NCBI GenBank assembly: GCA_040388415.1
Contig: JAZKBV010000002.1
Location: forward strand, 63,383 to 127,382
Direction: 5' to 3'
Source: Patescibacteria group bacterium
GTDB taxonomy: Bacteria; Patescibacteriota; Minisyncoccia; Phycocordibacterales; PALSA-1337
DNA length: 64,000 bases
Shown: in pieces, positions 26,840 to 53,183 of the stretch
Layout of the letters: the number at the start of each line of letters is the position of its first letter
Numbering within the stretch: the first letter of the stretch is position 1
Position numbers and translations under genes: made by a program
The notes under the pieces: model-generated
What the model saw: the letters and a program-made list of their open reading frames with translations, nothing else
Told to the model about the DNA's origin: nothing
The model's database searches: none

Positions 26840-28105
26840 TTACTTTGTTCCGGCAACAAGATCGTACGACCAGAACGAAAGATTTCTTTTATTCATGAAA
26901 TACAGGAAGTTATCTTTGTCATCCAAGCCAAGGTTAAAGGCGTCTATACTTGTTTTTGCTTCTTCAAATACTGATGATATGAGATGGACTTCGCCGGTCG
27001 AAGCATTTACTTCCCATATCTTATCGATTGTTGAAAGCGTTCCTTTATACCAATCGTCAGGATATGTACCAGGAACAGGCTGATATGGTACGGCACAATA
27101 GACTATGTTTTTGTAGAAGTTGCCCCAGACACATTTGTCAGCGAGCGTATGAATGACCGCATCGTTCCCTGTAGATGAAGCGATCGTGTAGATGCTAGTG
27201 AGGACATCGTTGCCATTTCCAGCTACTGAAAGGATGGCGTATTTTGCATCGTGGCTGATACGAGCAGAAAGGCCAGGTAATGGTCCAATAATTTTTTTCC
27301 ATGTGCCAGTTTTTGGATTAACAAAATAGAGGTAGCCGTTTTGAGCTGCTGAGCCTTTTGTTGTGATAGCGATTGTATTTTCTTCTGGCCACTCAACATT
27401 CACTTCGGTTATAGGGGTTGTGAAGATTTGTGTCGCTGATCCACCGCCGAGAGGAGCAGTGTAACCGACACCTCGGCCATCTTTAATGATAAAGAAGAAT
27501 ACCTTATCTTTCTTCGGTGACGCTGCGAACGTAGTGATGCCTTCAGGGAGGCCTTTGCCACGAAGCTCATATGGCGTAGCTGATGTGGTGGTTGTAGCAT
27601 GTGGTATAAGCGTCGCAAAGACCGTCGAGATCGTGTCATTATCATCTCCGAGAATGGAACCTATGAAGCCAGATATGTTTTTATTCCATGCACTTTCGTA
27701 TGTGCGTGGAAGGAGCGTGTTTGAAAGCGTGCTAATGGTCAAAGTGTCACCTTGGGCTTCGAGAACATTACCTCTGCCACGGTCAACCCAATGAACGAGC
27801 GTAGTGCTCGCAGTCGTCGATGCGCCGTAACCACCGATAGGTGTCGCACTCAAGAGGCGCAATGTAGGTATTTTGACTTCAACAGGATTGTTGTTTGAAG
27901 GTGTTGTGTCAGTGTTGTCAGTACTGCCCTGCTGTGTGTTTCCAGGTCTTCCAAAAGGATTAAAACCCGAGTTTGATGAATCGGTACCATTGTTCTGGTT
28001 TGTTGTTGGCTTGTTGATGAAGAAATACCAAAAGGCAGCCAAAGCGACGATGACAAGAAGGATGAGGGTGATTATGAGGCCGAGGTGAGATTTACGTTGT
28101 TCCAT
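26840..28105 (-). CDS. hypothetical membrane-anchored secreted protein, beta-propeller-like repeats (last gene of the T4SS-like cluster)
   Basis: N-terminal TM segment, S/T/N-rich linker, then repeated DG..G/W motifs (DGRGVGYT, AKYAILSVAGNGND, FLYFMNK..LSFWSYD) reminiscent of PD40/WD40 blades. Confidence 0.45.
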   Translation of the reverse strand: MEQRKSHLGLIITLILLVIVALAAFWYFFINKPTTNQNNGTDSSNSGFNPFGRPGNTQQGSTDNTDTTPSNNNPVEVKIPTLRLLSATPIGGYGASTTASTTLVHWVDRGRGNVLEAQGDTLTISTLSNTLLPRTYESAWNKNISGFIGSILGDDNDTISTVFATLIPHATTTTSATPYELRGKGLPEGITTFAASPKKDKVFFFIIKDGRGVGYTAPLGGGSATQIFTTPITEVNVEWPEENTIAITTKGSAAQNGYLYFVNPKTGTWKKIIGPLPGLSARISHDAKYAILSVAGNGNDVLTSIYTIASSTGNDAVIHTLADKCVWGNFYKNIVYCAVPYQPVPGTYPDDWYKGTLSTIDKIWEVNASTGEVHLISSVFEEAKTSIDAFNLGLDDKDNFLYFMNKRNLSFWSYDLVAGTK

Positions 28106-28106
28106 G

Positions 28107-29426
28107 TTATTTGTCGCCGAGTTGGTTGATAATCGATTGAGATTGTTTCTGGAGAATAGTATTTATGTCAGAATTCTGTATCTTTGCGCTCGAAACCAGA
28201 TCTTGTATATTGGATATAACTTTTTTTACCTGTGCGGAGTTCTGCGCATTAAGCTCGTTTGTCATTGTTTGGTTTAGTCCTTGAGCTACAACCAATCCAC
28301 CAACCGCTCCTCCAACTGCACCCTTTGCACCTCCATTTGTACCACCAACAATGGCGCCAGCCGCCGTGAAAAAATCAGTATTAAATGTGGTAATTGTATT
28401 GACCAGCTCGCTGAAATAAGGACTTGTATTGAGAGTGGCAAGCTCGTTATTTATAGCTACCATTGTACCTGCATATCTGCTGTAGTCGATGACTCTGTTT
28501 GCGGCGTCAGGCTGACCAAGGTCTTTTAGCTGGGCAATGGCTGTTTTCATCTGTTCATTTATTGCTCCCTGGCTTATAGAAGTACAATCATCGCTTGTTT
28601 TCTGGCTTACTGCTCCTGTATTGAGGCATTTTTCAATCTGAACAGTCATGAGTCCTACTGCCTGTTTTGCTACAATTTCACCCTTGGTAGAGTTTTCTTT
28701 ATCGAGTATTGAAAGAAGCTTGTTACAAAGTTCTTCGTTGCTTACGCTTAAATAGTCGCCATCCTCACATCTAAGCTCTGCCTGGTCTGGACTTATAGCG
28801 TCGGAAGAAAGATTTAGTTGATTGTATATGCTTTGTTTCTCCTGTTCATAATCAGCTAGAGCCTTTTTGTCAGCCGCAATCTCATCGAGGATGCTATTCA
28901 CTTGAGCTTTATAAATTGAACCTTGCTGCGCAGATAATAATGAAAGCTGTATGTCATTGAGCCACGTATTAATATTGTTCGTCGGATGGATATTCAATGG
29001 CGCTACCAATGTCGAAGGTATATTCACAAAGCGTGGATCAATCGTTCTCAAGATAAGATATGAAGATAAGATAAGTAGCAGGCCGTATATAGCATTTTTA
29101 ATCTTGTCCAAACCTTCTGACTTGCTATTCACTGCATCAGCGGTCATGTACTGGAATCCGCCAAATGTGATCATGAAAACTGCAGCAACTGCACCCATGG
29201 CAATCAAAAGGTTAAAGGCGTATTTGATATACGAGTCGAAATTGACGTTTGTTGCGAGCTGGAGGTTGCTCGAGGTGACATCAGGGAGTGGTGCCAAAGG
29301 AGTGTATGAATCCTGAACAGAAGTAAAAACATTGCCCGCAGCTGTTGCAACGATAGGGGCTACGCCCATTGCTGAAACAAGAAATATAAATGCAATAGTC
29401 GTGTATTTTAAGTGCTGTAATTTCAT
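28107..29426 (-). CDS. hypothetical protein with signal peptide, two N-terminal hydrophobic helices (pilin/VirB2-like topology) and a long extracellular domain
   Basis: MKLQHLKYTTIAFIFLVSAMGVAPIVATAAG, then TM helices YAFNLLIAMGAVAAVFMITFGG and IYGLLLILSSYLIL. The C-terminus is Gly-rich. 1-nt spacing to flanking genes. Confidence 0.45.
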   Translation of the reverse strand: MKLQHLKYTTIAFIFLVSAMGVAPIVATAAGNVFTSVQDSYTPLAPLPDVTSSNLQLATNVNFDSYIKYAFNLLIAMGAVAAVFMITFGGFQYMTADAVNSKSEGLDKIKNAIYGLLLILSSYLILRTIDPRFVNIPSTLVAPLNIHPTNNINTWLNDIQLSLLSAQQGSIYKAQVNSILDEIAADKKALADYEQEKQSIYNQLNLSSDAISPDQAELRCEDGDYLSVSNEELCNKLLSILDKENSTKGEIVAKQAVGLMTVQIEKCLNTGAVSQKTSDDCTSISQGAINEQMKTAIAQLKDLGQPDAANRVIDYSRYAGTMVAINNELATLNTSPYFSELVNTITTFNTDFFTAAGAIVGGTNGGAKGAVGGAVGGLVVAQGLNQTMTNELNAQNSAQVKKVISNIQDLVSSAKIQNSDINTILQKQSQSIINQLGDK

Positions 29427-29430
29427 AATA

Positions 29431-30492
29431 TTATAAAGTTATTGGTGTTGATGGCGAAGTATCAGAGTCAGCTGCATCAAAGGATACGTTGAAGCTGTTG
29501 TCGGCGCTCTGGAGGATATTGTTCACTCCCCTCACCCCGAGCTCGATATGCGATGTGCCCGATGTGCCATCAGGAGTGCGAAGAACAATCGACCTGCTTG
29601 AAGCGAGTTCATCGTGTTCGAGGCCGTTGATCATCCAGTCTATGGTGAGATCATTACTGATATTGCTTGAGAAGTTAAAGCCGAAAAGCGAAGCAAATGC
29701 TTGGACCTCTTTTTGACTGCCTATCTTCACAGAGTTGCTGATTGCGGTATTGAAGAATGGTCCATAAACAGGGTCATTTTTGTAGAACGTGATCAAGGGC
29801 GATGTTGCACTGATGGCAATCAAGCTCTGCGCTTGGGCAGAACCATCGCGCGTGCTTGCGGTGACGATCAGATAATACGGTCGTGGCACGAGCTTCCCTT
29901 GCAACAGTATCGATTGTTTTCCAAATCCCGACTGGTCTTGAAGGGCTGTGCCGTCATCTTTTTTCCATTGGTATACCAGAGTTGCTGGGTCGTACTCTAC
30001 TCCAGCTGAGTTTGCCAAATGTGGCACGGCGATAACTCTGACGGTATTTTGAAATACGAGAGGAACTTTACCTTTGAAAAAGGGTGGAGTGTAGCCATCA
30101 GTTTCGATTATCAGATCCATAGATCCAGATCCAATCGTGATGGTATTGTTATAACGAATACCATTTGCAGTCACTGCGGTGATAGCAACAGTAATTTTTT
30201 TACCGAGATTTGGCGCTTTCACGTCAAGCGAGATTGCCCCGATACCCTTCTGAACTTGTTTACCATCGACAGTCCAGACGATAGTTGCTGAATTGATATC
30301 AAATGTGTAGCTCTGAGCTTTTATGGTCATAGTTTGACCAGGAACTGGGTTGTCAGTTGAAGGTGTGAGCACGATAGCCGTCGCGTTTTCAGGCAGGCCC
30401 TGAGCCTGTGTAACTGAAGAAATACCCAAAGACAGACAAGCAAGAAGCACTACAATACCATATCTATAATTTACAAAACGAGAAAATTTCAT
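29431..30492 (-). CDS. hypothetical secreted protein with three tandem Ig-like/beta-sandwich repeats
   Basis: Signal peptide, then a repeated motif (IVWTVDGKQVQKG / LVYQWKKDDGTALQ / LTIDWMINGLEHDE) every ~100 aa. Tracked GTG start at 30519; the ATG at 30492 is preferred. Confidence 0.45.
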   Translation of the reverse strand: MKFSRFVNYRYGIVVLLACLSLGISSVTQAQGLPENATAIVLTPSTDNPVPGQTMTIKAQSYTFDINSATIVWTVDGKQVQKGIGAISLDVKAPNLGKKITVAITAVTANGIRYNNTITIGSGSMDLIIETDGYTPPFFKGKVPLVFQNTVRVIAVPHLANSAGVEYDPATLVYQWKKDDGTALQDQSGFGKQSILLQGKLVPRPYYLIVTASTRDGSAQAQSLIAISATSPLITFYKNDPVYGPFFNTAISNSVKIGSQKEVQAFASLFGFNFSSNISNDLTIDWMINGLEHDELASSRSIVLRTPDGTSGTSHIELGVRGVNNILQSADNSFNVSFDAADSDTSPSTPITL

Positions 30493-30534
30493 TACGTATA
30501 TTGTATCAATATTGCGCACTGATTGCGATGGGGG

Positions 30535-31278
30535 TTATTCACGCCTATTAAGTACTTCCATCTCAATATCCCTCACATGATCTCTTCCGGGTATAACTTC
30601 CTCCGGATCGATGGATTCAACCCGTCTTTGTGCGTCCGCAATATACCTATTTTCTGCCTCTACAGCAATTGTTCTTCTCACACCATCTTCATCCATTGGA
30701 TGAGATGCATACTTACGCCCCATAGCCTCAGCAATCTCCATGTCGTTCATTTGATTTGTTTTTGTCTGATTTTTTCCTATACCTACTGCCACACGGACAC
30801 CATTTGTATTTAATGGGCCAGCATTATAGTTTATTACCCTACCCTTGCCCCCAGATGAGCCAGTTCCTGAAGTCGTATTGGGAATGTATGAGTTTCCGGT
30901 TTGAGTTTCAGGTAAGCGTACACGGTTATTATTCACTGGTGAGTTCGTACCCCTCCCTTTCAAAGGTATCTTGAAGCCCGTTTTGTCCTCTATACGTGAC
31001 ATAACGACTATAGCAATTGCAGCAGCAAGTATAGTTGGAAATTCTTGTATACCTGGTATCAATTCTGCGATAAATGAAATCAATTCAACGCCAAGACGTC
31101 TTGCATTTATGAGCCCCAGACCTTTTTTCCAAAGATAAAGGCTTGCACAAAGCCAAAAAACTGGGCTAACAAAGTCACCAGTTATTGGAATGAAAGTAAT
31201 TAAATCAGCAAAACCTGCTACGGCTAAAAACTTAAATATGGCACCATTATCTAAATGATACTGCGGTTTTTCCTTCAT
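30535..31278 (-). CDS. hypothetical membrane protein (2-3 TM helices, soluble C-terminal domain)
   Basis: FLAVAGFADLITFIPITGDFVSPVFWLCASLYLW and ILAAAIAIVVM hydrophobic helices. Directly downstream of the VirB4-like gene. Confidence 0.45.
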   Translation of the reverse strand: MKEKPQYHLDNGAIFKFLAVAGFADLITFIPITGDFVSPVFWLCASLYLWKKGLGLINARRLGVELISFIAELIPGIQEFPTILAAAIAIVVMSRIEDKTGFKIPLKGRGTNSPVNNNRVRLPETQTGNSYIPNTTSGTGSSGGKGRVINYNAGPLNTNGVRVAVGIGKNQTKTNQMNDMEIAEAMGRKYASHPMDEDGVRRTIAVEAENRYIADAQRRVESIDPEEVIPGRDHVRDIEMEVLNRRE

Positions 31279-31299
31279 GTAGCTATTATATCACTCCTA

Positions 31300-33114
31300 T
31301 TACTGCCCTGTCTGTTCAAGCTGTCTCTTTGATTCTTTTATGTTTAATACTTGTTGAGGATTTGTGGTGATGATTTGATCCTCTGTATATGAGCCGATGA
31401 CCTTGATGGCGACGTGCTTGAGGCCGACAAAGAAGATACCCTCCCCCACATCTGATTCGAGCAAGAGATATTTTTCTTCATCAGTGAGATTGAACACTTT
31501 TTGAACGTGATCAATAACCGTTGGCGATTGCTTGAGGAGCATTTGGATAGATGAGTTCGTCACAATTGGCATACCATAGGGCGAGTTCAAGAAATCGTCC
31601 ACGTCCTGAGTGATCGTTGAAAGACCGAGGAAATATTTACGTCCACGTTTTGCCAAACCGAATAGGAATGAAGCCGTATCTTCTGATTTCATCATCCACC
31701 ATGCCTCATCGATCACGAGCAGGCGCTTTTTGAGCTCTTTGCGGACAGCATTCCAGATATAGTGAGTGACGAGATACATAGCCACTGGTTTGAGTTCATC
31801 TTCCATATCACGGAGCGAGAAGACGATGAATTTTTTATTGATATCGACGTTCGATGGGCGGTTGATGAATCCTGACCAGGTTCCTTTTGTATATTTTGAG
31901 AGGCGTTGCACGAGTGAGTCCGCCCCATCCATACCTGCAAGCACAAGCTCAAAGTCTGACAAGAGCGGTGCCTCTACATTTCTAAAATCAGAATCAGGCG
32001 TGATATCTTTGAGCGCGTATGTCTCAGTGATAGCACGATCGATGATCGCGTCTTCTTCTTGTGAGAGCCCGCCCAACATGATGCGGAAGAGGCCGACAAG
32101 GTTAATGATGTTTGAACGAAGAACATCTGATGCAGATTCGTCTTCGCGAGGGATAGGAAGATCGAATGGGTTGATATGGTGCTCAGAGTTGAGCGAGATA
32201 TTGAAGTACTTCCCTCCAGTGGCCTCGGCCATATACTCGTATTCTTTTTCTGGGTCGATGACGATGACATCGACATCGAACATGAGCGTACGGAGGATTT
32301 CGAGCTTGGTCGTGTATGATTTTCCTGCACCGGCAGTGGCAAATGTTACCGAGTTATAGTTTTCTAATGAAAAACGGTCAAAAAGAACGAGTGAAGAGTT
32401 GTGTCTATTGATGCCATACAAAATTCCCTTGTTAGATGTGAGGTCAAAAGAAACAAATGGAAAAAGGCTTGAAAGCGGCGATGAATTGAGCTTTGAATGA
32501 ACACCAAGCTGGTCATCAGCTATAGGAATAACGCTCTTGAAACCTTGTTCTTGCTGGAAAAGAGCAGGCTTAAGGTATACAAGCTTTGCTTCAAGGATGG
32601 ATTTGATCTCAGATTCGAGCTTATCAAGCTCATTTTCATTATCAGCGAATATGGTGATGTATACGCCTACATCAAAAAGGTGTTCCTGTGCCTGCATAAG
32701 TTGATCACGAAGCTGTTCGAGGTCTTGGTAGGCTGTATCGAGCGCTGGGTCACGAACAAGCCCTTTGTCCTCCCTTCTTGAGATCTGACTTTGTACTTCA
32801 GCAACCTTCTTTTGGAAGTGACGGAGTATCTTTGCAGTATCAACAGGATGAATGAAGATGGAAATATCAAAAACCTTGTCCAAGTTGATGATCGGTGCGA
32901 ACCAACTTTCCTCGAGGAAGCGCGGATAAGAGATGACAAAAAGCGTACGACCAACTTTTTCACCAAGGTTAAGTTCTTTCGGGCTGATCTTGAGCGCAGA
33001 AGGAGCGATGACGTCTTTGAGTTCGAGCACACCTGCTTGATAGATCTCTTCGGGGAGGATAGAGACGATCGGAGCTTCTTGTTTTTTACCGAATAAATTT
33101 GAAAATATAGACAT
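31300..33114 (-). CDS. VirB4/TraC/CagE-family type IV secretion ATPase (C-terminal ATPase portion)
   Basis: Walker A TFATAGAGKSYTTK, Walker B with the VirB4-typical DEAW (LLVIDEAWWMMK), and the upstream segment VGRTLFVISYPRFLEESWFAPII, which is VirB4-like. Confidence 0.75.
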   Translation of the reverse strand: MSIFSNLFGKKQEAPIVSILPEEIYQAGVLELKDVIAPSALKISPKELNLGEKVGRTLFVISYPRFLEESWFAPIINLDKVFDISIFIHPVDTAKILRHFQKKVAEVQSQISRREDKGLVRDPALDTAYQDLEQLRDQLMQAQEHLFDVGVYITIFADNENELDKLESEIKSILEAKLVYLKPALFQQEQGFKSVIPIADDQLGVHSKLNSSPLSSLFPFVSFDLTSNKGILYGINRHNSSLVLFDRFSLENYNSVTFATAGAGKSYTTKLEILRTLMFDVDVIVIDPEKEYEYMAEATGGKYFNISLNSEHHINPFDLPIPREDESASDVLRSNIINLVGLFRIMLGGLSQEEDAIIDRAITETYALKDITPDSDFRNVEAPLLSDFELVLAGMDGADSLVQRLSKYTKGTWSGFINRPSNVDINKKFIVFSLRDMEDELKPVAMYLVTHYIWNAVRKELKKRLLVIDEAWWMMKSEDTASFLFGLAKRGRKYFLGLSTITQDVDDFLNSPYGMPIVTNSSIQMLLKQSPTVIDHVQKVFNLTDEEKYLLLESDVGEGIFFVGLKHVAIKVIGSYTEDQIITTNPQQVLNIKESKRQLEQTGQ

Positions 33115-33118
33115 AAGA

Positions 33119-33763
33119 TTATGTTATCTGAATCGGCTTCTCCGTTTCCCCTGGATTAAAGATCTTGTAGAACAATTCTACCACTTCTTCGGTGCCAAGT
33201 TCTGCCGCGCGGATGCCACAGCGAACGAGCCCCTGTTCTACTACAGCGACACGCTGCTCCAACTGGCTTCTGTACTCTGTAAACTGTGCGTCTGACGAGG
33301 CAGTTTTCTGTTCAGCAGTCTTATTTTTGCCCGGCATCATGTTGCTGATAGGGTTTTTGCTTGCGGTGAGAATAGGTGGATCATAAGGTACGACCACAAA
33401 GAAGCTCTTTGACATGATATTGGTGCTTTCGACGAATGATCGTACGAATTCGATATACTCACGAACCTGTATTTTCATAAGGTCAGTGGTCTGTTCTTTG
33501 TAGCGATCTTCAAGGAGAGCAATATATGGCCGTATATCGAGTTTTTTCGACTGTGCGAATATTTGTATTGAGAAATCGAGCGAGTTCAAAAAGTTTTGGA
33601 ATTCGGAAAGAATCGCATTTTGTTCGTCGCCAGATTTCAAGGCAAAGTTAAGAGAAGTGGCCAGTACTACCGACCTCATTGCCCCGCTTCTGAGTATGAC
33701 GATACCGTCTCGGATTTCCTGAATCGGTATGAATTCCTGAGTTGTTGATTGTTTAGCAGCCAT
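33119..33763 (-). CDS. probable VirB4 N-terminal domain encoded as a separate ORF
   Basis: 214 aa, ending 4 nt before the ATG of the ATPase ORF. 214 + 604 aa is about the length of Gram-positive VirB4 homologues (~800 aa). FIPIQEIRDGIVILRSGAMRSVVLATSLNFALKSGDEQNAILSEFQNFL resembles VirB4 N-termini, recalled from memory. Confidence 0.4.
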   Translation of the reverse strand: MAAKQSTTQEFIPIQEIRDGIVILRSGAMRSVVLATSLNFALKSGDEQNAILSEFQNFLNSLDFSIQIFAQSKKLDIRPYIALLEDRYKEQTTDLMKIQVREYIEFVRSFVESTNIMSKSFFVVVPYDPPILTASKNPISNMMPGKNKTAEQKTASSDAQFTEYRSQLEQRVAVVEQGLVRCGIRAAELGTEEVVELFYKIFNPGETEKPIQIT

Positions 33764-34197
33764 TATTTTTGTCTCTTATTGGAATAAATGCTTTCTTTGA
33801 TATCCAAACTCCAGGCCAAGTCTTTGAGCTTACTGTCTGCTATCTTCGGTACCATGACCGATGCATAGTTTTTTGCTTCACGAACAGCCTCGGCAGTATC
33901 TTTTGGTCGAGGCTTCTCTTCTTTTTTCCAAATATACAGTTTATCGGTAAAGTAATATTTAAATGCTGACTCGACTACATTGATGAATGGCCTGTTGTTT
34001 ATCCTGTAGAAAGCAAAAGCTGTAGATATGGCCATGATAGCGACGATAGGTATAAGAGAGAAGATGAGATTGTTTATGAATATATACACTACAAAGGATA
34101 AACCAGCGCCGCCGGCCATAAAGATGAACTGCTTCAAGGTGAGTGGCCCGAAGATCTTATCCTCAACCTCGATGAATTGGGGAACTTGAAAACGCAT
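33763..34197 (-). CDS. PrgI-family (VirB3-like) small membrane protein
   Basis: 144 aa. MRFQVPQFIEVEDKIFGPLTLKQFIFMAGGAGLSFVVYIFI plus a second TM helix matches the PrgI/VirB3 pattern (VP..., then FGgLTlrQ, then two TM). Stop overlaps the next start (TAATG). Confidence 0.55.
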   Translation of the reverse strand: MRFQVPQFIEVEDKIFGPLTLKQFIFMAGGAGLSFVVYIFINNLIFSLIPIVAIMAISTAFAFYRINNRPFINVVESAFKYYFTDKLYIWKKEEKPRPKDTAEAVREAKNYASVMVPKIADSKLKDLAWSLDIKESIYSNKRQK

Positions 34198-34247
34198 TAC
34201 TCCTATTATACATTAGATTTACCGTACAATGGCTGTAGATATCTCGC

Positions 34248-34865
34248 TTACGCAACAGGTTCACGGTACAGATCTGGCCCTCTTGGTTTCTTTGGCATGA
34301 TAGGCGGCGCTTTCTGGGGACTTGTCGTTTTTTGCTCACTCTTCTTTTCAATTGAAACCATAGGTCCAGCCAAGAGATGATCAACCATTGTCACAGGATT
34401 CTCTATACCAGCAATGAGCTCATCGTGACTTTCGATAGGCTGTGCGGTCTGGTCAATGCCATTGCTTCCCTGCTCTGGTTCTACCGTAAAATCACCCGCG
34501 TGTTCAAGGTCAGAGACAGAGCTAGCGTTTGACGCTTTCTCAATATTTTCTTGAGTCGAACGCATAAGCGTTTTTATTTTACTGAAGATATCTTTATTGA
34601 TGTCGTCAGCTAGGGCCGTGGCAGTTTTGACTGGTACTCCTGCGCTATTTGCAAAATTACCCACAAAGCTACTTGAAGGAGATAGTCCGAGCATGATGAG
34701 ACCCACTTGATCGACAAGCTCACCTTCCTGGTCGAGCATTAGGTTATATTTCTTTGAGATTGCAATGAGACCGTCATGAACATCAGTAGACGTGATAGCA
34801 TCCTGCACTCCTTTTGGCAGTTGTTCAAATTTTGCTTGTATTTCTTCTGAAGTGAATTGACGCAT
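34248..34865 (-). CDS. hypothetical soluble protein of the T4SS-like cluster
   Basis: 205 aa, acidic, no TM helices. In-operon position between the VirB6-like and PrgI-like genes. Confidence 0.4.
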   Translation of the reverse strand: MRQFTSEEIQAKFEQLPKGVQDAITSTDVHDGLIAISKKYNLMLDQEGELVDQVGLIMLGLSPSSSFVGNFANSAGVPVKTATALADDINKDIFSKIKTLMRSTQENIEKASNASSVSDLEHAGDFTVEPEQGSNGIDQTAQPIESHDELIAGIENPVTMVDHLLAGPMVSIEKKSEQKTTSPQKAPPIMPKKPRGPDLYREPVA

Positions 34866-34870
34866 AATGA

Positions 34871-37096
34871 TTATTTTTTAGCTCCTCCTTCTGGTTTTGG
34901 TGAACCACCTTTACTTTCTCCACCACCTTGTGCTTTGAGACCTTCAACAGAATTTTTTAGATCATCAAACTCCTCTTTTTCAACTTGTGCCTTAGCTGCG
35001 TCTATATCCATCTGCGCCTGCGCCTTAGCTTTTTCATTAGCAGTCATTTTATTGCTTATCGCCGCTATAGCATCCGTTCTTTCTTTTTCAATAGCTTCTT
35101 TTTGTACCTTGATCCCATTCAACTTTTCTTGAGCTGCTGATAGGGATTGGGTAAGTGGAACAGTCGATGTGCGGTTAGCGGGCATTTTTGCGGCATTCGC
35201 AACTTCAGTAGACTTTATTTGCTCATTGATCTTGCTAATTTCAAGCTCGATATTCTTCTCCTCCTTCTCTACATCACTTAGTTGTTTATTTGCTTTCTCA
35301 GTTGCGTCTTCACGTTCTTTTTTGAAAGCAATCTCATTAGTGACGTATGTACTCATATTTGTTTTTGCAGTTTCCCCAGTTTTTTTCTTTGTTTTCGCCT
35401 CTGCAACATCATCCGCCTTCTTTGTCATAGCAAAACCAGCTTGCTGTGACCCACGTGATCTCATCAATTTTGCTAGGATGCTTACATCTGAAGTAGTGAG
35501 TGCATCGCGATGAGTCTTTTGTAGTTGTTCCGCTGCGGATACAGCTGACTTGTACGCTGCCGCATCTTTTTCTTTAGCAGCATCTAGGACTGCTCTATAT
35601 GAGGCGTCCGAGTAAGATGCGCGATTTCGTGCTACTGTATCAGCATTACGAGTAAAGTCCTCACGGCTGACAGTGCCAATAGCCTTATTCCTCTTCTCCG
35701 TATCTTCTTTTTCAGTTTTGGTGTAACTGTCGTATTGCTTAGCAACTTTACCAATATTTTTGGTTACTAAACGCCCAATAGTTGGATTCGTTGCTTCAAA
35801 TTTGCGCATCGTACTGCTGTTATTGGCACGAGATGCTCCCCAACTAAGCGTATTTCTCTTGGTAAAGTTGCCAACTCCCTTCCATAGGCCTTTCGCACCA
35901 AACTTATCCGCATTGATCCAGTCTGAAGCAACGCCACCCATCGACATGGCTGTCACAAGTGGAATGTTGAGCAAGAAGATGATGAAGAAATCATTGATAG
36001 CAAGAACGATATAGTTCATCGGTATGAATGAGAGAGACGTCCCTGATCCTGAGAATGCGTTACCGCTCGGGTTAGTAAATACCGTGCTTGCGGTCAGTAT
36101 GCGGAGCGCCGCATATAAGAGGAGCAGATATACCGGCATAAATATAAGCTGAGCATTGAGCTGAGTGGTGAATGTCTTTGCCTTGTCTTGCAGTTGCGGT
36201 ATGACCCATGAGGCGAACCAAATAGGAGAAAATGCCAAGAGGAGTACCAAAACTATAAAACGGACGATAAAAGCAAGCGCGGCAATGAGGAAAGAAAGGC
36301 CGATCGTAAACATGATGATTGTGCCTACAACGCCCTGGATGAGGATCTCCAGCGGTTTTGCATCTGCCGGAGCATTCGCATCTGTAGGTCCGCCTGAGTT
36401 ATATATGCTTTGTGGGCTGAGATAGGTCAGGAATATGTCAGATATGCCACCTACGTTTCCTTTGAACATCTGTGAGGTGATGACACAGGTGTTCACTCTG
36501 CCGATGCTCTGGCCATCCTTCGGCTGACAGTCTTTTGCAGTCTGCGCGTCTATCACTGCGGGCGTAGAAGAAGAGTTCACGACGATACCTCGATACAATG
36601 TCAAAGAAACGATATTCGACGCGTCGATGAGAAGGCTGGTGATGAAGAAACTGAAGTTGATGAGGATGCCGACAATAACAACGTTCTTTATGAGGTTACC
36701 AGGACTACCAAGCGTTTTTGAGCTTTGTCCGAGAATCATCAAAAATGACGCATACAAGAGCATGAATATGATGAACATGCCCGATATGTCGCGTATCGTT
36801 TGCCATACTATATATACGCCCTGAGTGCTATCGACGAAATCTTTGATCTGGAGTGTGAGCGTAATGGACACATTCAGAAGCGCACCGGTGAGGGTAACCC
36901 ACAATGACATGAGCATCAATGCAGTATTGGATATCCATGCCGCTACTTCAGCCAGAATTGAGTTCAAGCTCAAGCCGAAGAGCGAGACGATATCGCCTGC
37001 CCCAACATCAGCGCGCGCCACAGACAAGGAAATAACCCATCCAGTGACCGGAAGTACAAAGAATCGTGTGAAGTTGGATAGGTAGCGTTTGATCAT
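34871..37096 (-). CDS. large polytopic membrane protein (VirB6/TrbL-like) with ~300-aa K/E/A-rich coiled-coil C-terminal tail
   Basis: 741 aa with at least 8 hydrophobic helices in the first 450 aa, then a low-complexity charged tail (KKADDVAEAKTKKK...EKEEKNIELEISKINEQIK...). Topology and cluster position are consistent with a VirB6 analogue. Confidence 0.45.
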   Translation of the reverse strand: MIKRYLSNFTRFFVLPVTGWVISLSVARADVGAGDIVSLFGLSLNSILAEVAAWISNTALMLMSLWVTLTGALLNVSITLTLQIKDFVDSTQGVYIVWQTIRDISGMFIIFMLLYASFLMILGQSSKTLGSPGNLIKNVVIVGILINFSFFITSLLIDASNIVSLTLYRGIVVNSSSTPAVIDAQTAKDCQPKDGQSIGRVNTCVITSQMFKGNVGGISDIFLTYLSPQSIYNSGGPTDANAPADAKPLEILIQGVVGTIIMFTIGLSFLIAALAFIVRFIVLVLLLAFSPIWFASWVIPQLQDKAKTFTTQLNAQLIFMPVYLLLLYAALRILTASTVFTNPSGNAFSGSGTSLSFIPMNYIVLAINDFFIIFLLNIPLVTAMSMGGVASDWINADKFGAKGLWKGVGNFTKRNTLSWGASRANNSSTMRKFEATNPTIGRLVTKNIGKVAKQYDSYTKTEKEDTEKRNKAIGTVSREDFTRNADTVARNRASYSDASYRAVLDAAKEKDAAAYKSAVSAAEQLQKTHRDALTTSDVSILAKLMRSRGSQQAGFAMTKKADDVAEAKTKKKTGETAKTNMSTYVTNEIAFKKEREDATEKANKQLSDVEKEEKNIELEISKINEQIKSTEVANAAKMPANRTSTVPLTQSLSAAQEKLNGIKVQKEAIEKERTDAIAAISNKMTANEKAKAQAQMDIDAAKAQVEKEEFDDLKNSVEGLKAQGGGESKGGSPKPEGGAKK

Positions 37097-37105
37097 GAAG
37101 TATTA

Positions 37106-38830
37106 CTATTCCCCACCGAGCGCGTAACACTGGTTCAAAAGAGCTTTTGCGCTCGTTTCATAAGGACCGGCGACGCCTTGCGCATTCTGTACCTCGTTCT
37201 TAAGTTCAGTCTTATTGATTACTGGTGAGTTATTTGAGAGTGTCTGTTGAAGAGCTACACTAGCTGCTTGGAGATCTTCTGGACTACTTAATTCAGTCAT
37301 GCTATCTGCATCAGAATTGATTGAGTCAAGAGCGCTTTGTGCTGCGCTAAGCTTGTCAGCATAAGGCTTTTTGGCCAACTGGAGGCTTGTATCCGTATGT
37401 GCAATCGATGTGAGGAGAGCTGCAAGCGCATCACCGTTTGCCACTGAATCATAATGTATAGCATCGGCGCATCTTTTTGCCTCGGCAAGATCGTTTGTTG
37501 CTGTGGTGAATGCATCAACCGCCTGCTGGTGATAACTGATTTCTTCCTGAGCATTTTTTTGATATGTTGCAAGCGCCGCCTGAACGTTTTGCGCATCATT
37601 TGCGTATGTGCTCGTAGCATTCGCTTTATCTGAAACCGCCTGAATGAATGATTGTGTCTGTCCTGAAGGTCGTGAGCTGACAGTTGCAAGGCCTGTTTGA
37701 AGGACTTGATTGACAAGTTGACCGATCAAAGCGTCTACGATTTCGTTGATAGAGTCAGCCAAATTGAGCTGATCAACTCCTGAACCAAGAACTTTTTCGA
37801 GCTGACCGTTGATGACTGATCCCGGGGTTTTTGTTTCGCATGATTTGTATGCTCCAGCCGAGGTTGGACTTTGAGATATCGATCCTTGTCCTGAGTTTTG
37901 GTAGGCCATGACTGCCTGTGGTGAGGCTTTTCCTGTATTGAGACCCGTCTGACTTGCCAAACTGGTATTATCAGTCAAAAATCCAGTACCGCTATATATT
38001 TGTCCGGGGCTCTGGTTAGCAAAAGAGCTTTTTGTGCCGGCGATATTGTTGACCTGTGCAGATGCCTCTGCAACACTTTGCACTTGTGCCGCACTTACTT
38101 CTTTACATTCTTGCCATGACAAGAAACCGCTTCCTTGAACAAGTTCCTGCTGCTTCGCGGATTGTTTTTGTCCAGTGCGTTGCAACAAATCGCTATGAGC
38201 TTTCAGGTATGCACCAGAGATATTGTTTGTTGGTCTGCTGACTTCTATGAATGCGGGCCAGCCACCTTGTTTGAAGTCGCCCTTCATGAAGCCTCCGATA
38301 GATGCTCCGTCCACAGTTGAGTGTTTTACATTATTGATAACTGAGCTGAGTGTGCAGGTATATTTTTCAACTTGACCATACCCTGCTTGTCCCAAGGCGA
38401 GCGAAAGTCTGACATCGATATTGAACGGCGAACAAAGCCCTGAAAGGATGCCTGTGTTGGCGATGAAATCACCAGTGATCTGGTCACCTAAATCGGAGAA
38501 GAAACCGGCCGGATTTGTCAGGAACGAGGGGCTACCGCTGAAGCCGGAGTTGATCCACTGAACGACGCTTGCGGTGATGCGCTGAACGATCATTTTTGCG
38601 ATATGCCATGCGAGGCCGTCGAGGACCCAGTTTTTAATTCTCTCCAACCAATTATTGGCAGTGTTTTGTAGCTCTGTCGGGCTCACGTTTCCTTCAATAG
38701 TGATAAGACCATTTAAAACCACAACAGGAATAGCGTGAGCTTGCTTTGGTTGAATATTAATTCCACCAAAAATAATGCTAATCATTACTAGTCCAAGTAC
38801 TATTTTTCTTTTTGATGAAAATATATTCAT
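37106..38830 (-). CDS. hypothetical secreted protein (signal peptide, Ala/Gln/Ser-rich)
   Basis: MNIFSSKRKIVLGLVMISIIFGGINIQPKQAHA signal peptide, then 540 aa with low-complexity A/Q/S-rich segments. Second gene of the cluster. Confidence 0.45.
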   Translation of the reverse strand: MNIFSSKRKIVLGLVMISIIFGGINIQPKQAHAIPVVVLNGLITIEGNVSPTELQNTANNWLERIKNWVLDGLAWHIAKMIVQRITASVVQWINSGFSGSPSFLTNPAGFFSDLGDQITGDFIANTGILSGLCSPFNIDVRLSLALGQAGYGQVEKYTCTLSSVINNVKHSTVDGASIGGFMKGDFKQGGWPAFIEVSRPTNNISGAYLKAHSDLLQRTGQKQSAKQQELVQGSGFLSWQECKEVSAAQVQSVAEASAQVNNIAGTKSSFANQSPGQIYSGTGFLTDNTSLASQTGLNTGKASPQAVMAYQNSGQGSISQSPTSAGAYKSCETKTPGSVINGQLEKVLGSGVDQLNLADSINEIVDALIGQLVNQVLQTGLATVSSRPSGQTQSFIQAVSDKANATSTYANDAQNVQAALATYQKNAQEEISYHQQAVDAFTTATNDLAEAKRCADAIHYDSVANGDALAALLTSIAHTDTSLQLAKKPYADKLSAAQSALDSINSDADSMTELSSPEDLQAASVALQQTLSNNSPVINKTELKNEVQNAQGVAGPYETSAKALLNQCYALGGE

Positions 38831-38834
38831 ACTA

Positions 38835-39767
38835 TTATTGAGGTTTTATTAATGAGAAAAATGAGCCGGGCTCAGTTTGGGTAAAAGTTACGCCGTTTGT
38901 ACTGAAATAACTATTCATGCTCATAAACGTCGACAAAATACTGCTTTGCGTCGTTCCATAGTTGCTCAGTGATACTATCGACTGCATCGGGTCGCCTTCT
39001 ATGTTTCGGAGCGCTTGAGATATTGATGCCATTTTATTTATTGAGTTAATGAGATCTATGTGATTCTGAACAAGCGGTTGAGGCACTTGTGTCGATATGA
39101 GCAACTGCGCTACTTTTTTGTACGCTGCAGTAACGGCGTCTATCTGACTGAGCAGCGTCAGATCATTTTTATCAAAAGCATTATATGCCAAATCAGCCGC
39201 GTTCTTCTTTGGGCCATAGGTGATAATGATGCTCCCGACCGTATTGCCATATATATGGAGCGTATTAGCATCAGTTGTGCCTAGTACAGAAATATCTTTT
39301 GCAGTATATATTTTTACTGCAGATGATTCGACCTGCGCGTTCGCGAGCGTTTGGTCAATCACTCCCTGGACAAGCTGTTTGTTGCCATCGAGATTATTTT
39401 GTTTGAGTTCGATGTAGCGTGCAAAGAAATCACGGCCAACTTTGTCAGTGAGCGTGAGAGGTGTATCCGATGCTGTTGAACCATTTGAAGCTTTGCCTAT
39501 AGAAGTATTTGAGCCATTTACATCAAAAAACTGCTTTTTCCAGTCGGTACTGCTTGATATGATCAAGTTTTGGTTAGTGTCATCTGCTTGAACCGCAATA
39601 TCTGCGCGAGGCTGAGGAGCGGGTTGCCAGTAGGTATATGCAGTTGTCGCACCCACGGCCAATATGCACACAATGGCAATAGTGAGAGTCTGTTTGTGCG
39701 GGTAGTATTTTGCCATGCTACGTTTAATTATAGCAGAGAAAACCTTAATATTCTGTGGATAAACCAC
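38835..39767 (-). CDS. hypothetical membrane-anchored protein (first gene of the T4SS-like cluster; GTG start)
   Basis: 310 aa with TM helix TLTIAIVCILAVGATTAYTYW. Starts 6 nt after the rsmA stop. The start codon region overlaps a perfect TTATCCACA 9-mer. Confidence 0.4.
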   Translation of the reverse strand: MVYPQNIKVFSAIIKRSMAKYYPHKQTLTIAIVCILAVGATTAYTYWQPAPQPRADIAVQADDTNQNLIISSSTDWKKQFFDVNGSNTSIGKASNGSTASDTPLTLTDKVGRDFFARYIELKQNNLDGNKQLVQGVIDQTLANAQVESSAVKIYTAKDISVLGTTDANTLHIYGNTVGSIIITYGPKKNAADLAYNAFDKNDLTLLSQIDAVTAAYKKVAQLLISTQVPQPLVQNHIDLINSINKMASISQALRNIEGDPMQSIVSLSNYGTTQSSILSTFMSMNSYFSTNGVTFTQTEPGSFFSLIKPQ

Positions 39768-39773
39768 GATACT

Positions 39774-40628
39774 CTATGAATGTATCTGACGCTCGATGTC
39801 TAACCAATTTTGTGGAGTGAGATCCTCTGCGCGAACCTTGTCATCAAGTCCAATTTGTTTCCAAATACGATCAATGTCCTCTTTTGCGAGCACAACCTCG
39901 AGGTTTCTTTTTAAGACTTTTCTTTTGTGTGCAAAACCTGCTTTTACTATCGTAAAAAACTGAGTGATAGCTAGTGGGTTAATATTTAATGCTTCTTTGA
40001 ATGCGTCGGCAGAGATATTTTCAATAGAAAGGATGGCTGAGTCGACCGTTGGAGGTGGGGTGAACGCTCCTGGAGGTACCTTGGCAATCATTTTTGGCGT
40101 GCCAAACACTTTGACTGATATAGAAAGGATGCTTTCCTTGCTCTTCCCTGTTGATTGTTCAGGTCGAGCGATGATTCTGTCCGCGACTTCTTTTTGAACA
40201 AGCAAAACCATTTTTTGTGGACGCGGTTCGTGCTCGAGGAATTTTTCGAGGATTGCGCCAGTAATGTAGTACGGAATATTGGCGATGAGGGAGTAAGAAG
40301 AAGGGGGCAAGAAGAAAGAAGAAAGAAGTGAAGAGTCAAAAGTCAAAAGATTTTCATCCAAGATATCGCCATGAATGAGTTTGAGGTGGCCCGACGAGAT
40401 CTCAGCAGCAAATTTTTCTTTGAGCAAACTGATGGCACGGTCATCTTTTTCTACTGCAATCACTAGTGCTCCGGACTTAAGGAGTTCAGTTGTCAAAATA
40501 CCTGTTCCAGGGCCTATCTCAAGGATATTTTGGCCAGCGACAATGTTTCCAGCAGCAATGATTTGATCCAACACATGTTTAGAGTTGAGGAAATGCTGGC
40601 CAAGGGATTTTTTCGCAAATAGTCTCAT
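39774..40628 (-). CDS. rsmA: 16S rRNA (adenine1518/1519-N6)-dimethyltransferase RsmA/KsgA
   Basis: LGQHFLNSKHVLDQII...ILEIGPGTGILTTELL SAM-binding motif, and NIPYYITGAI. Confidence 0.88.
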   Translation of the reverse strand: MRLFAKKSLGQHFLNSKHVLDQIIAAGNIVAGQNILEIGPGTGILTTELLKSGALVIAVEKDDRAISLLKEKFAAEISSGHLKLIHGDILDENLLTFDSSLLSSFFLPPSSYSLIANIPYYITGAILEKFLEHEPRPQKMVLLVQKEVADRIIARPEQSTGKSKESILSISVKVFGTPKMIAKVPPGAFTPPPTVDSAILSIENISADAFKEALNINPLAITQFFTIVKAGFAHKRKVLKRNLEVVLAKEDIDRIWKQIGLDDKVRAEDLTPQNWLDIERQIHS

Positions 40629-40662
40629 GAGCCAATACTAGCATGCAGGTTTACCTAGTGCA

Positions 40663-42839: not shown

Positions 42840-44039
42840 ATGAGCTCAAAAAATAGAATACGGATATATTGCCTAAATTCTATTTTTATTATGAAATTTT
42901 TTCTTAAAAATAAAAATCAAAAATCAAGTCTCACAAAGGATATCACTATGTCATTGGTGATATTTGTTGCCATTATTGTGACACCTCTCGCTTACTCAGA
43001 GACTGCTCAAGCCAGTCTATTTTCTTTTGTTGCCCACATGATCGGTACAGGAGAAGTTTCTGCCGATACGCAGTCTCTCTCTGACTCATCTTCGACCAAC
43101 TCACAGAATATGCCCTTGCTTCAAGCAGCAGCGAACCCGAACCCAAATTCTGCTGTGTGCAATGAAACTATGCCGGTGAACGGTAGTATTTTGGATCCAA
43201 ATATAGTTGGTACCTGTGATACGGTAAACACGCAAATCAGTACATATATCGTTAACCCGGGCGACACAATATCGACGGTTGCACAGATGTTCCATGTTTC
43301 AACTAACACTATCCTTTGGGCAAACAATCTGACCAGCAGAAGCGTCCTCAAATCAGGGCAGACCCTCGTCATTCTTCCCATAACCGGTATTACGTATACA
43401 GTTAAAAAAGGAGATACGCTTCAAGGTATCGCAAAGAAATATGGCGGCGATCACCCAGTCGATACTCTTGCTGATATCCTCGATTACAACGACATAACCC
43501 AGACTACTGCTCTTTTGGCAGGACAGAGTATCATTATTCCTTCAGCAGAAATATCTGCAAATGATGTTGCGCAGACAGTTCCTCGCCGAGGATCAGTATC
43601 AGTTGGCGCTGAGCCGTTGCTAGATAATATAAAGAACCTACCAACATATTTAAGTTGCAGTGCGCCAACCGCAGGATGCGTATTTCTACGACCTATACAA
43701 GGAGGCCATATTAGTCAGGGATTGCATGGTCATAATGGTGTCGATCTCGCTGCTCCGGTCGGTACGCCAATCGTCGCCTCAGCAGGAGGAACTGTCATCA
43801 TCAGTCGCATCAATGGTGGGTGGAACGGTGGCTACGGAAATTTTGTCGTTATCTCGCATAGTAATGGCACACAGACGCTCTATTCACATATGCAATCGAA
43901 AACTGTTGTTACGGCTGGTCAGCACGTGAACCAAGGCGACCTTGTTGGATATATCGGCATGACCGGTCATACTACCGGTCCGCATGTCCACTTTGAGATT
44001 CGTGGAGCAAAAAATCTTTTTTGGGATCCGGCCATATAA
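42840..44039 (+). CDS. LysM-domain M23 family metallopeptidase (peptidoglycan hydrolase)
   Basis: Two LysM repeats (TYIVNPGDTISTVAQMF..., TYTVKKGDTLQGIAKKYG...). M23 motifs HNGVDLAAPVGTPIVA and GYIGMTGHTTGPHVHFEI. The signal/anchor helix starts near 42948. Confidence 0.85.
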   Translation: MSSKNRIRIYCLNSIFIMKFFLKNKNQKSSLTKDITMSLVIFVAIIVTPLAYSETAQASLFSFVAHMIGTGEVSADTQSLSDSSSTNSQNMPLLQAAANPNPNSAVCNETMPVNGSILDPNIVGTCDTVNTQISTYIVNPGDTISTVAQMFHVSTNTILWANNLTSRSVLKSGQTLVILPITGITYTVKKGDTLQGIAKKYGGDHPVDTLADILDYNDITQTTALLAGQSIIIPSAEISANDVAQTVPRRGSVSVGAEPLLDNIKNLPTYLSCSAPTAGCVFLRPIQGGHISQGLHGHNGVDLAAPVGTPIVASAGGTVIISRINGGWNGGYGNFVVISHSNGTQTLYSHMQSKTVVTAGQHVNQGDLVGYIGMTGHTTGPHVHFEIRGAKNLFWDPAI

Positions 44040-44041
44040 CT

Positions 44042-45598
44042 TTAATACATTTTTTGTCTGTATTGGATAGCTTCGAGCACATGCTTCTTTTGAATATGAG
44101 TTGATTTATCTAAATCAGCTATTGTGCGAGCGACTTTGATGACCGAATGAAATGCTCGACCAGATAGCTCCATTTTTTCAGCTGTCATTGTCAGTATATC
44201 TTTTACATCAAGTGCAATAAGAGCATATTTCTCTATATCCCCTGCGCCCATCTCACTATTAAAATATTTCATATTTTTTTCAGGAAGAGCCTCAAATCGA
44301 CCGGCTTGAATTTTCCGAGCAGCGATGATCCTTTGTTGTATGTCTACGCTTTTTTCTGACTCATTTTGCATTAAGGATAGTTTTTCATAGTCGATTTTAT
44401 GCACATGTATCCATATATCGATACGATCAAGGATCGGTCCAGATATTTTTTTCTGGTATTGCTGAATGCTTTTGAGCGAACAGGTGCAGCCATTGTCTCT
44501 CCCTCTGCCACATCTGCATGGATTCATCGAGGCGATGAGGATGGATTGTGCAGGAAAAGTCGCTGATCCGCGTGCTCGAGCTACTGTAGCAACTCGATCC
44601 TCGAGCGGTTGTCTCAGGCCCTCGATGACACGCTGCTCAAATTCAGGAAATTCATCCAAAAATAGTATGCCTCTATGGGCCAATGTTATCTCTCCTGGAT
44701 GAGGTATGGTGCCACCACCTAGGATCGATACTACTGAAGATGTATGATGCGGAGATCTAAAGGGAGGCTCTGTGATGAGGCCTTTGTTCAATAACTTAGC
44801 AAGAGAATAAATGCTTGTGACCTCGATTGCTTGATCATAGGTGAGCGGCGGTATGATAGATACAGCGCTTTGTGCGAGCATCGTTTTCCCTGTTCCTGGT
44901 GGTCCGTAGAGCACTATGTTGTGGCAACCAGCGATAGCGATTTCGAGCGCTCGTTTGGCGGTCTCATTTCCTTTGATAAATGCCATGTCGCGCAAGTGGA
45001 GCACGTCTCTATTTGAAGCTAATCCTACGGACACCGCCGAGCATAAAACTGTCTGTGGTTCGACAGAATCTATCTTTTTTGTTCGACTGAGATGGTCGAG
45101 CACTGCTTTTAATGTTGAGGCAGGATATATGATGATGTTCTGGGCCAAGCGAGCCTCGTCACTATTTTCCTGTGGAATAAATGCCGTAGTGAAACCATGC
45201 TTTTGTGCTTCAATAAGGAGCGGAAGTAGTCCATGGACAGGACGGATGCCTCCCTCAAGCGTCAACTCGCCCAGAAACAATATGTCTTCATATTCAAAAT
45301 CGATATCACCTGAAGCTTTGAGATACGCGAGCGCCATAGCCAAGTCAAAAGACGTTCCCTCTTTTCGTATATCAGCGGGCGCCAGTGAAATAACCACTTT
45401 TTGATTTTTTTGTTTTGGTGAGACATAGCCGGTATTCTTTATCGCTGCAGATATGCGGTCTTTAGCCTCAGCAACTGAACGGTCACCGAGTCCGACAATT
45501 GAAAAAGAATGGAGGCCGTTAGATATGTCGACCTCAACAGTGATAACTTCCATTTGTAGACCGGAAATATGGCCACTACGTGTTTTTGCAATGCTCAT
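44042..45598 (-). CDS. comM: Mg-chelatase-like AAA+ ATPase ComM/YifB family
   Basis: N-terminal Lon-protease-like S5 domain, Walker A VLYGPPGTGKTML, and a ChlI/MCM-type box. Internal ATG (MSIAKTRSG) preferred. Confidence 0.85.
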   Translation of the reverse strand: MSIAKTRSGHISGLQMEVITVEVDISNGLHSFSIVGLGDRSVAEAKDRISAAIKNTGYVSPKQKNQKVVISLAPADIRKEGTSFDLAMALAYLKASGDIDFEYEDILFLGELTLEGGIRPVHGLLPLLIEAQKHGFTTAFIPQENSDEARLAQNIIIYPASTLKAVLDHLSRTKKIDSVEPQTVLCSAVSVGLASNRDVLHLRDMAFIKGNETAKRALEIAIAGCHNIVLYGPPGTGKTMLAQSAVSIIPPLTYDQAIEVTSIYSLAKLLNKGLITEPPFRSPHHTSSVVSILGGGTIPHPGEITLAHRGILFLDEFPEFEQRVIEGLRQPLEDRVATVARARGSATFPAQSILIASMNPCRCGRGRDNGCTCSLKSIQQYQKKISGPILDRIDIWIHVHKIDYEKLSLMQNESEKSVDIQQRIIAARKIQAGRFEALPEKNMKYFNSEMGAGDIEKYALIALDVKDILTMTAEKMELSGRAFHSVIKVARTIADLDKSTHIQKKHVLEAIQYRQKMY

Positions 45599-45644
45599 GA
45601 ACACGATTATATACAATCGTGTTCAAAAACTAATCAAAAAAGTC

Positions 45645-49293: not shown

Positions 49294-49356
49294 AGTAATT
49301 ATAATGTAGCAAGAAAAGAGGTGTAGCGCATCTATAGATGTGATAGCATATTCATT

Positions 49357-49854: not shown

Positions 49855-49864
49855 TTTTGAGACA

Positions 49865-50773: not shown

Positions 50774-50779
50774 TTTTAC

Positions 50780-52317: not shown

Positions 52318-52390
52318 AAAAAATGTGAGTTAACTAAATTTGTATTAAAAAGGTTATTGATTTGTAAATGACCTTACTACGCTAAGTATA

Positions 52391-52416: not shown

Positions 52417-52422
52417 GTCAGA

Positions 52423-53177: not shown

Positions 53178-53183
53178 ATACCC

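Follow-up and report, generated by a model that had tools for sequence, protein, structure and literature searches.

An eleven-gene locus beside dnaA in a Paceibacteria genome very probably encodes a Patescibacteria-clade type IV secretion system

Eleven consecutive open reading frames (ORFs) of 144-741 amino acids (aa), named O1-O11 in order of transcription, occupy positions 26840-39767 on the minus strand of a 64-kb stretch of contig JAZKBV010000002.1 (hereafter the window), which comes from a Patescibacteria/Paceibacteria metagenome-assembled genome. The locus very probably encodes a type IV secretion system (T4SS) of the Patescibacteria clade in its Paceibacteria arrangement, both in identity and in architecture, and is placed between rsmA-pcrA and yidC-rnpA-dnaA-dnaN. 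As an account of the locus as a whole, this is the best explanation, and one that can be held with good confidence. Every testable sequence-level feature that defines the Patescibacteria T4SS was found here, the VirB4 clade being judged by similarity only, and the reading as a housekeeping, non-conjugative T4SS is supported. The type of system, its missing conjugation genes and its position on the dnaA side have already been described in papers from 2023-2025. A preliminary description of this DNA, made by a model from the letters and a list of their ORFs, had proposed a housekeeping rather than a mobile machine. This matches the published conclusions for the phylum (PMC12102498, PMC10633639, PMC12857230) and is hence not new.

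The motor of the system is encoded by O7 and O6 (Table 1). O7 matches the NCBIfam model of the CD1110 VirB4 (NF045971) with 372.9 bits against a cut-off of 325, as well as the Pfam family P-loop_TraG (PF19044, E = 4e-25), the solved Thermoanaerobacter VirB4 structure 4AG5 (E = 3e-39) and R388 TrwK (2e-4), and it carries the Walker A motif GAGKS at aa 262 and the Walker B motif DEAW at aa 469. Since O7 covers only positions 178-732 of the CD1110 model and O6, located 4 nucleotides (nt) upstream, matches the VirB4 N-terminus (Mbov_0397 VirB4 model positions 100-233, E = 9e-11; CD1110 positions 1-114; TrsD NF041427, E = 1e-6), VirB4 is, judging from these matches, split over two proteins, with O6 as the N-terminal domain and O7 as the motor. 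The membrane partner O5 matches the Pfam PrgI family (PF12666) with E = 4.1e-11 and 43.7 bits, above the cut-off of 27. Thus, the VirB4-family ATPase with both Walker motifs and the PrgI-type VirB3 analogue with two transmembrane (TM) helices of the preliminary description were recovered by profile searches of the kind it had proposed, and both matches are significant. The split of VirB4 had been overlooked, with the TrsD-like O6 left among anonymous hypothetical proteins.

O3 combines a helical transmembrane domain (aa 1-460) with a hydrophilic tail of 281 aa rich in Ala, Lys and Glu, and with this tail it corresponds to the "extended VirB6" type treated in PMC12857230. The assignment of O3 as an extended VirB6 is supported by its modelled fold and by TrbL matches in orthologues, O3 itself having no direct Pfam match. 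The same two lines of evidence stand behind the VirB6/TrbL-like protein with a Lys/Glu/Ala-rich tail that had been proposed for this ORF. PF19590, which appears in the precomputed annotation of some O3 homologues, was not reproduced with the current Pfam copy, and a profile search of PDB sequences with O3 gave coiled-coil or other insignificant matches only. A match of the tail to CNTF was taken as spurious.

The pilin of the system is represented by O10, which matches the Pfam T4SS_pilin family (PF18895) with 28.1 bits against a cut-off of 26.6 and the Mbov_0395 pilin-like model with E = 6e-6. Its N-terminus consists of a signal-like segment followed by two hydrophobic helices, in line with the signal-peptide protein with pilin-like twin helices noted earlier, and the pilin domain spans aa 65-127. 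Orthologues of O10 range from 106 to 628 aa in length. The extension that follows the pilin domain holds a Gly-rich hydrophobic stretch at aa 352-381.

Relatives of the O7 VirB4 were found in at least 577 species-representative genomes of Patescibacteria, and more than 8000 clusters match. The best 80 of these at least 577 are 77-98% identical to O7 and carry Paceibacterota, Parcubacteria, Taylorbacteria, Zambryskibacteria and Nomurabacteria labels. In comparison, the nearest plasmid VirB4s, the hosts of which are Firmicutes and Actinobacteria, reach at most 35.5% identity (best of 2798 plasmid matches). This difference in similarity, and not a phylogeny, strongly suggests that O7 belongs within the Patescibacteria VirB4 clade. 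With a Patescibacteria/Paceibacteria genome as its source, the earlier assumption of a reduced-genome, probably episymbiotic organism is reasonable.

Conservation of the whole locus was assessed in 36-41 full-length loci of other Paceibacteria genomes, which were picked by VirB4 similarity, the comparison within genomes still being valid. All loci of sufficient length (36-41) keep the order pcrA-rsmA-O1..O11-yidC-rnpA-dnaA-dnaN. The preliminary description had considered absence of the cluster from close relatives, and it was instead present in every relative examined, with the same order and the same core-gene neighbours. Over 861 genome pairs, the median identity is 81.0% for VirB4 (O7), 63.1% for the TrsD-like O6, 60.6% for DnaA, 53.5% for PrgI (O5; 55% across loci) and 50.0% for DnaN, and it falls to 26-33% for O1, O2, O3, O9 and O11. 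In 99.8% of the pairs, the identity of VirB4 exceeds that of DnaA, which gives indirect support to a possible requirement for epibiotic growth of the kind demonstrated for Southlakia. Since the motor is conserved and the gene order kept while the surface parts diverge, these comparisons indicate that the core locus is inherited vertically, with strong purifying selection on the motor and rapid divergence of the envelope and surface parts.

The chromosomal setting agrees with this picture. The cluster is flanked by yidC-rnpA-dnaA-dnaN on the left and by rsmA-pcrA on the right, followed by a divergent gene for a LysM/M23 peptidase and by one for a ComM-like ATPase (a Mg-chelatase gene at 44042-45616). 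The cumulative guanine-cytosine (GC) skew has a shallow minimum at 22-24 kb, beside dnaA/dnaN, and is thus consistent with a position close to the replication origin. The core-gene setting that had been described earlier was confirmed, with yidC, rnpA, dnaA, dnaN, rsmA and pcrA all identified by family matches. Pfam and NCBIfam family scans took in nearly all of the larger ORFs (~85 aa or more) of the window. Among the scanned ORFs, no match to a relaxase family was found, the origin of transfer (oriT) not being searched for, nor was there a type IV coupling protein (T4CP; VirD4/TcpA). No integrase was found in or beside the cluster, and the only tyrosine recombinase among the scanned ORFs, a XerC/D-like protein (53184-54107), is encoded 13 kb away. 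The direct repeats flanking the block are short chance matches only. In this respect, the absence of relaxase, VirD4, integrase and att repeats claimed from the sequence held for the scanned ORFs and the flanks.

Two observations concern the orientation and surroundings of the locus. If the replication origin (oriC) lies in the dnaA-rnpA spacer (~25.3-25.6 kb), the 16-kb block pcrA-rsmA-O1..O11 (26840-42624, minus strand) would run head-on to the rightward fork. Head-on transcription would be unusual in a locus of such high conservation and presumably good expression, and the orientation of the block does not vary among the 36-41 related loci. Furthermore, a PilB/T2SSE-type ATPase of a type IV pilus is encoded at 15108-16796, 10 kb beyond dnaA/dnaN, so that the two envelope machines whose essentiality was reported for Southlakia both lie near the origin here.

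The coordinates of the eleven ORFs agree exactly with those given in the preliminary description. On the longest ORFs, the gaps at the junctions from O1 to O11 measure 4, 9, 5, 50, -1, 4, 21, 15, 4 and 1 nt, and the end of the upstream rsmA lies 6 nt from O1. The sole overlap is a TAATG at 33763, formed by the O5 stop and the O6 start, as had been reported. The start of O1 is probably M18 (position 39716), as homologue alignments begin at residue 18, and that of O2 is probably M16 (position 38785; the protein P0241, of 559 aa, is 100% identical). With the starts reset in this way, two of the gaps grow to ~57 and ~49 nt. Hence, the tight packing described earlier stands, whereas the spacing of 0-6 nt was understated, with gaps of up to 50 nt and two widened by the start correction. 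At 0.43-0.47, the GC content of the block does not differ from that of its flanks or from elsewhere in the window.

Table 1 Predicted products of the O1-O11 cluster and of the neighbouring peptidase gene, with positions in the window.
Feature	Position	Strand	Predicted product
O1	38835..39767	-	Bitopic protein, one N-terminal TM helix (aa 27-45), extracytoplasmic domain of ~260 aa
O2	37106..38830	-	Protein exported or anchored by its N-terminus; strongly conserved N-terminal domain rich in Cys, Trp and Gly, C-terminal helical bundle
O3	34871..37096	-	Extended VirB6-like polytopic membrane protein, 741 aa
O4	34248..34865	-	Soluble, probably cytoplasmic protein, 205 aa, no TM segment
O5	33763..34197	-	PrgI-family VirB3 analogue, two TM helices (aa 23-41, 44-62)
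O6	33119..33763	-	TrsD-like, detached VirB4 N-terminal domain, 214 aa
O7	31300..33114	-	VirB4 ATPase, C-terminal motor part, MPF_FATA/CD1110 type, 604 aa
O8	30535..31278	-	Small membrane protein, at least two N-terminal TM helices (aa 14-32, 74-92), poorly conserved hydrophilic C-terminal extension
O9	29431..30519	-	Secreted or anchored protein, N-terminal hydrophobic segment, three Ig-like repeats of ~100 aa (tentative)
O10	28107..29426	-	VirB2-like T4SS pilin domain and C-terminal extension of ~310 aa
O11	26840..28105	-	N-terminally anchored (TM aa 8-26), extracytoplasmic, possibly beta-propeller
LysM + peptidase M23 protein	42840..44039	+	Pfam M23 E = 1e-29, LysM E = 6e-22; ~3 kb upstream of the cluster

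Systems of this kind have been surveyed in 3,035 Patescibacteria genomes by Quiñonero-Coronel et al. 2025 (PMC12102498). That study described a monophyletic Patescibacteria VirB4 clade nested in MPF_FATA, the monoderm conjugation machinery, with TrsD, PrgI/VirB3, VirB6 and PF18895 VirB2-like proteins widespread near virB4 and relaxases almost wholly missing. In Paceibacteria, dnaA, dnaN, rnpA, ksgA and rpmH were found close to virB4, and VirB1-like proteins with M23/LysM domains were associated with it, while VirD4 homologues lie far from virB4 in many Patescibacteria genomes (PMC12102498). In addition, Wang et al. 2023 (PMC10633639) demonstrated by transposon sequencing (Tn-seq) that the T4SS of Southlakia epibionticum (SEML1_0006-0019), a cluster without a recognisable relaxase or coupling protein, is essential. 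As reviewed in PMC12857230 and PMC11665869, the candidate roles of such systems are effector delivery, a pilus conduit and the import of DNA or other molecules.

The present locus resembles the Patescibacteria-clade T4SSs, including that of Southlakia, in its split TrsD-like and VirB4 proteins, PrgI/VirB3, extended VirB6 with a long hydrophilic tail and PF18895 pilin. As in Southlakia, it is chromosomal, lacks a relaxase and shows the local order VirB6 ... PrgI-TrsD-VirB4, and it lies beside dnaA, dnaN, rnpA and ksgA like the Paceibacteria systems of PMC12102498. However, one long pilin-domain protein takes the place of the six short arrayed pilins of Southlakia, neither an NTF2-like (VirB8-like) protein nor a lysozyme/peptidase could be recognised among the cluster products, and O1, O2, O9 and O11 are peculiar to the Paceibacteria version. 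The VirB4, TrsD, PrgI and Mbov_0395-type pilin-like families are shared with the MPF_FATA conjugative T4SSs, such as pGO1 Trs, pCF10 Prg/Pcf, pIP501 Tra and C. difficile CTn2 CD1110, as is the lack of an outer-membrane core complex. Yet, compared with these systems, the cluster has no recognised relaxase, coupling protein, VirB1-type hydrolase, VirB8-like protein or PrgB-type adhesin, and unlike MPF_FATA elements it is non-mobile, fixed at one chromosomal site and, as far as the comparisons indicate, vertically inherited. It differs further from the MPF_T systems R388 Trw and Agrobacterium VirB, the reference for T4SS structure, as it is of the monoderm type, with a split VirB4 and no VirB7/VirB9/VirB10 core, VirB11, VirB5 or VirD4 in the cluster.

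For the remaining proteins O1, O2, O4, O8, O9 and O11, searches against Pfam and NCBIfam and profile searches of the PDB yielded nothing significant, and the early impression that most partners of the motor have no recognisable homology is thus correct for six ORFs. In a tblastn search of 72,556 plasmids, no homologue of O1, O2, O3 (membrane domain), O9 or O11 was found. Likewise, profiles of O1, O2, O4 and O11 searched against the PDB gave no VirB8, TraM, PrgL or hydrolase match; apart from the weak O11 matches given below, they returned coiled-coil or otherwise insignificant matches, and structure prediction covered O2 and O3. O1 belongs to a family of 2170 representative clusters and is syntenic in 33 of the 36 loci, with a median identity of 27%; Pfam scans of 52 family members revealed no recurrent domain. 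The alignment of O2 contains 39 invariant columns, four of which are Cys (C118, C144, C227, C316), and the conserved motifs of its N-terminal domain include WINSGF.GSP and TPGSVI. In an AlphaFold2 model, the C-terminal bundle of O2 reaches a predicted local distance difference test (pLDDT) score above 90, and the N-terminal domain is poorly modelled even with 63 sequences. A fold search with Foldseek returned generic helical proteins only, so that no fold could be assigned, and O2 has no relative in PDB or Pfam. The N-terminal domain of O2 may have a novel fold, or it may be an enzyme belonging to the envelope module of the T4SS. A Helicase_IV_N match in O2 (22.9 bits, below the cut-off) was taken as spurious.

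O4 was detected in 22 of 36 loci with a mean column identity of 21%, and it ends in a D-x-Y-R-E motif with no variation at D198, Y200 and E202 and hardly any at R201. This C-terminal motif may be a peptide by which O4 docks onto the ATPase or onto the membrane platform. In the interval between VirB4 and O9 that is occupied by O8, most loci encode a multi-TM ORF of 110-340 aa, and this slot is empty in loci L031, L034-36, L040, L064, L071 and L075. For O9, the earlier proposal of three Ig-like repeats agrees with the ~100-aa periodicity of the invariant W82, W185 and W295, each in a W-x-x-x-G context, but the support from matches is weak (phage Hoc Ig-like protein, E = 0.003; also weakly ZirU and choice-of-anchor). 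O11 is present in 36 of 36 loci, and the beta-propeller-like fold suggested for it is unproven, with only weak matches to the TolB propeller (E = 0.1-0.8). Finally, the LysM/M23 gene lies upstream of pcrA in divergent orientation and holds the same relative position in 8 of 8 loci with a flank long enough. Its product may be a cell-wall hydrolase analogous to VirB1 and a putative member of the system.

Several points weigh against the identification of the locus as a Patescibacteria-clade T4SS or against parts of its description. Neither a VirB8-like nor a VirB1-like component was recognised within the cluster, and the VirB6 call for O3 depends on sub-threshold matches of orthologues and on a model with a pLDDT of 76. 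The ~310-aa extension of O10 is perhaps incompatible with a canonical VirB2 filament. It is spacing alone that suggests an operon comprising O1-O11, and promoter and terminator scans of 25.3-43 kb, where the number of sites was not above that in shuffled sequence, were uninformative on this. A T4CP could be encoded beyond the 64-kb window, making its absence a local one. Essentiality has been established for one Saccharibacterium alone, and the function of the Paceibacteria system is a prediction by analogy.

Based on established T4SS biology, VirB4 hexamers would be docked on the VirB3/VirB6 membrane platform and, driven by ATP, would extract pilin for assembly into a wall-spanning conduit or short pilus, which the fast-evolving O1, O2, O9 and O11 may form or decorate. 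It could be speculated that the machine is active at host-cell contact and moves macromolecules needed by the epibiont, not its own DNA. The cargo would most likely be proteins or effectors on their way out, or host-derived material on its way in. By analogy with other T4SSs, such translocation at the host contact, or a role as a pilus, is a quite possible function when set against DNA import, to be held tentatively.

Alternatively, the locus may encode an importer of DNA or nucleotides like Helicobacter ComB or Ced of Sulfolobales, feeding a cell unable to make nucleotides. This seems rather unlikely, although it is favoured in PMC12102498 and PMC11665869, as ComEC of Southlakia is dispensable and its T4SS essential. 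With no relaxase or T4CP in the cluster, export of the cell's own DNA is unlikely, and the ComM-like Mg-chelatase gene and the pcrA helicase gene adjoin the cluster. Both Helicobacter pylori ComB and crenarchaeal Ced are T4SS-derived importers without a relaxase, which makes a functional analogy plausible (PMC11665869, PMC12102498). However, the weak partial matches of O7 to CedB (34.9 bits, cut-off 700) and CedD (16.7 bits, cut-off 600) are confined to the P-loop region and stay far below the curated models, ComB comprises a diderm VirB2-B10 set unlike the cluster here, and no other Ced or ComB family match was seen. Nor does the cluster contain a DNA-binding or ComEC-like channel component, and the pilin and the large, fast-evolving surface proteins suit contact or adhesion equally well. 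The import reading is a proposal by analogy.

The VirB2-like pilin, the cluster without a coupling protein and the abundant surface proteins, which diverge quickly (26-33% identity), would also fit a filament or adhesin only, where VirB4 powers pilin extraction and pilus growth for attachment and no substrate is moved. The potential of such systems to elaborate a pilus is noted in a FEMS review (PMC12857230). This is improbable, however, as adhesion and motility would be served by a separate type IV pilus, represented by the PilB-type ATPase and with roles documented in the literature, the extended VirB6 channel component is kept and conserved, and the pilin extension of O10 speaks against a simple polymer. 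That the locus is an integrated conjugative element, or what is left of a decaying one, placed near the origin by chance is effectively excluded even though the VirB4, TrsD, PrgI and pilin families stem from monoderm conjugative elements: the scanned window lacks mobility genes and att repeats, the composition matches the flanks, insertion context and gene order are identical in 36-41 of the 36-41 species examined, and a VirB4 more conserved than DnaA is the opposite of decay.

Further features of the window lie away from the T4SS locus. Three DnaA-box-like sites (TTATCCACA; one perfect, two with one mismatch) occur within 134 bp at 57828-57961, inside a 105-aa ORF without a family match (57707-58024) that has tRNA genes on both sides, and the GC skew is clearly positive from ~56 kb. 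These sites could represent a DnaA-titrating or origin-related element, located 32 kb from dnaA. The region 49300-55300 is low in GC (0.38 at 50-52 kb) and carries two ORFs without a credible family, along with genes for an ORF6N/KilA-N-type protein (50780-51304), a NYN-domain protein (51784-52317), the XerC/D-like recombinase mentioned above and an exo/endonuclease-phosphatase (54478-55272). As rpsO (52423-52689) lies in the middle of this stretch, it is probably not one island. A fused protein with major facilitator superfamily (MFS) and spermidine-synthase parts is encoded at 59133-60737 (285 bits), and an apparently split second copy is found at 62442-63900, consisting of a 214-aa MFS-like part and a convergent ORF with a spermine-synthase domain on the opposite strand.

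A large part of bacterial diversity belongs to the Patescibacteria, whose cells live attached to those of other microbes and must obtain building blocks. The locus does not represent a new type of system; it shows the Paceibacteria arrangement in a clean and complete form. Increments that could guide experiments are the conservation of VirB4 beyond that of DnaA, the synteny of the 16-kb block and the components absent from plasmids, namely O1, O2, O3, O9 and O11, of which O1, O2, O9 and O11 are also without a family or fold match. It could be speculated, though this is doubtful, that the Paceibacteria version forms a distinct architectural subclass of T4SS, in which an extracytoplasmic part made entirely of lineage-specific folds (O1, O2, O9, O11 and O10) replaces VirB1, VirB8 and adhesins, and which serves not for secretion but as an essential, origin-proximal conduit importing host macromolecules, for instance DNA, nucleotides or lipids. 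If that were true, the conserved motor beside fast-evolving surface parts would reflect adaptation of host range.

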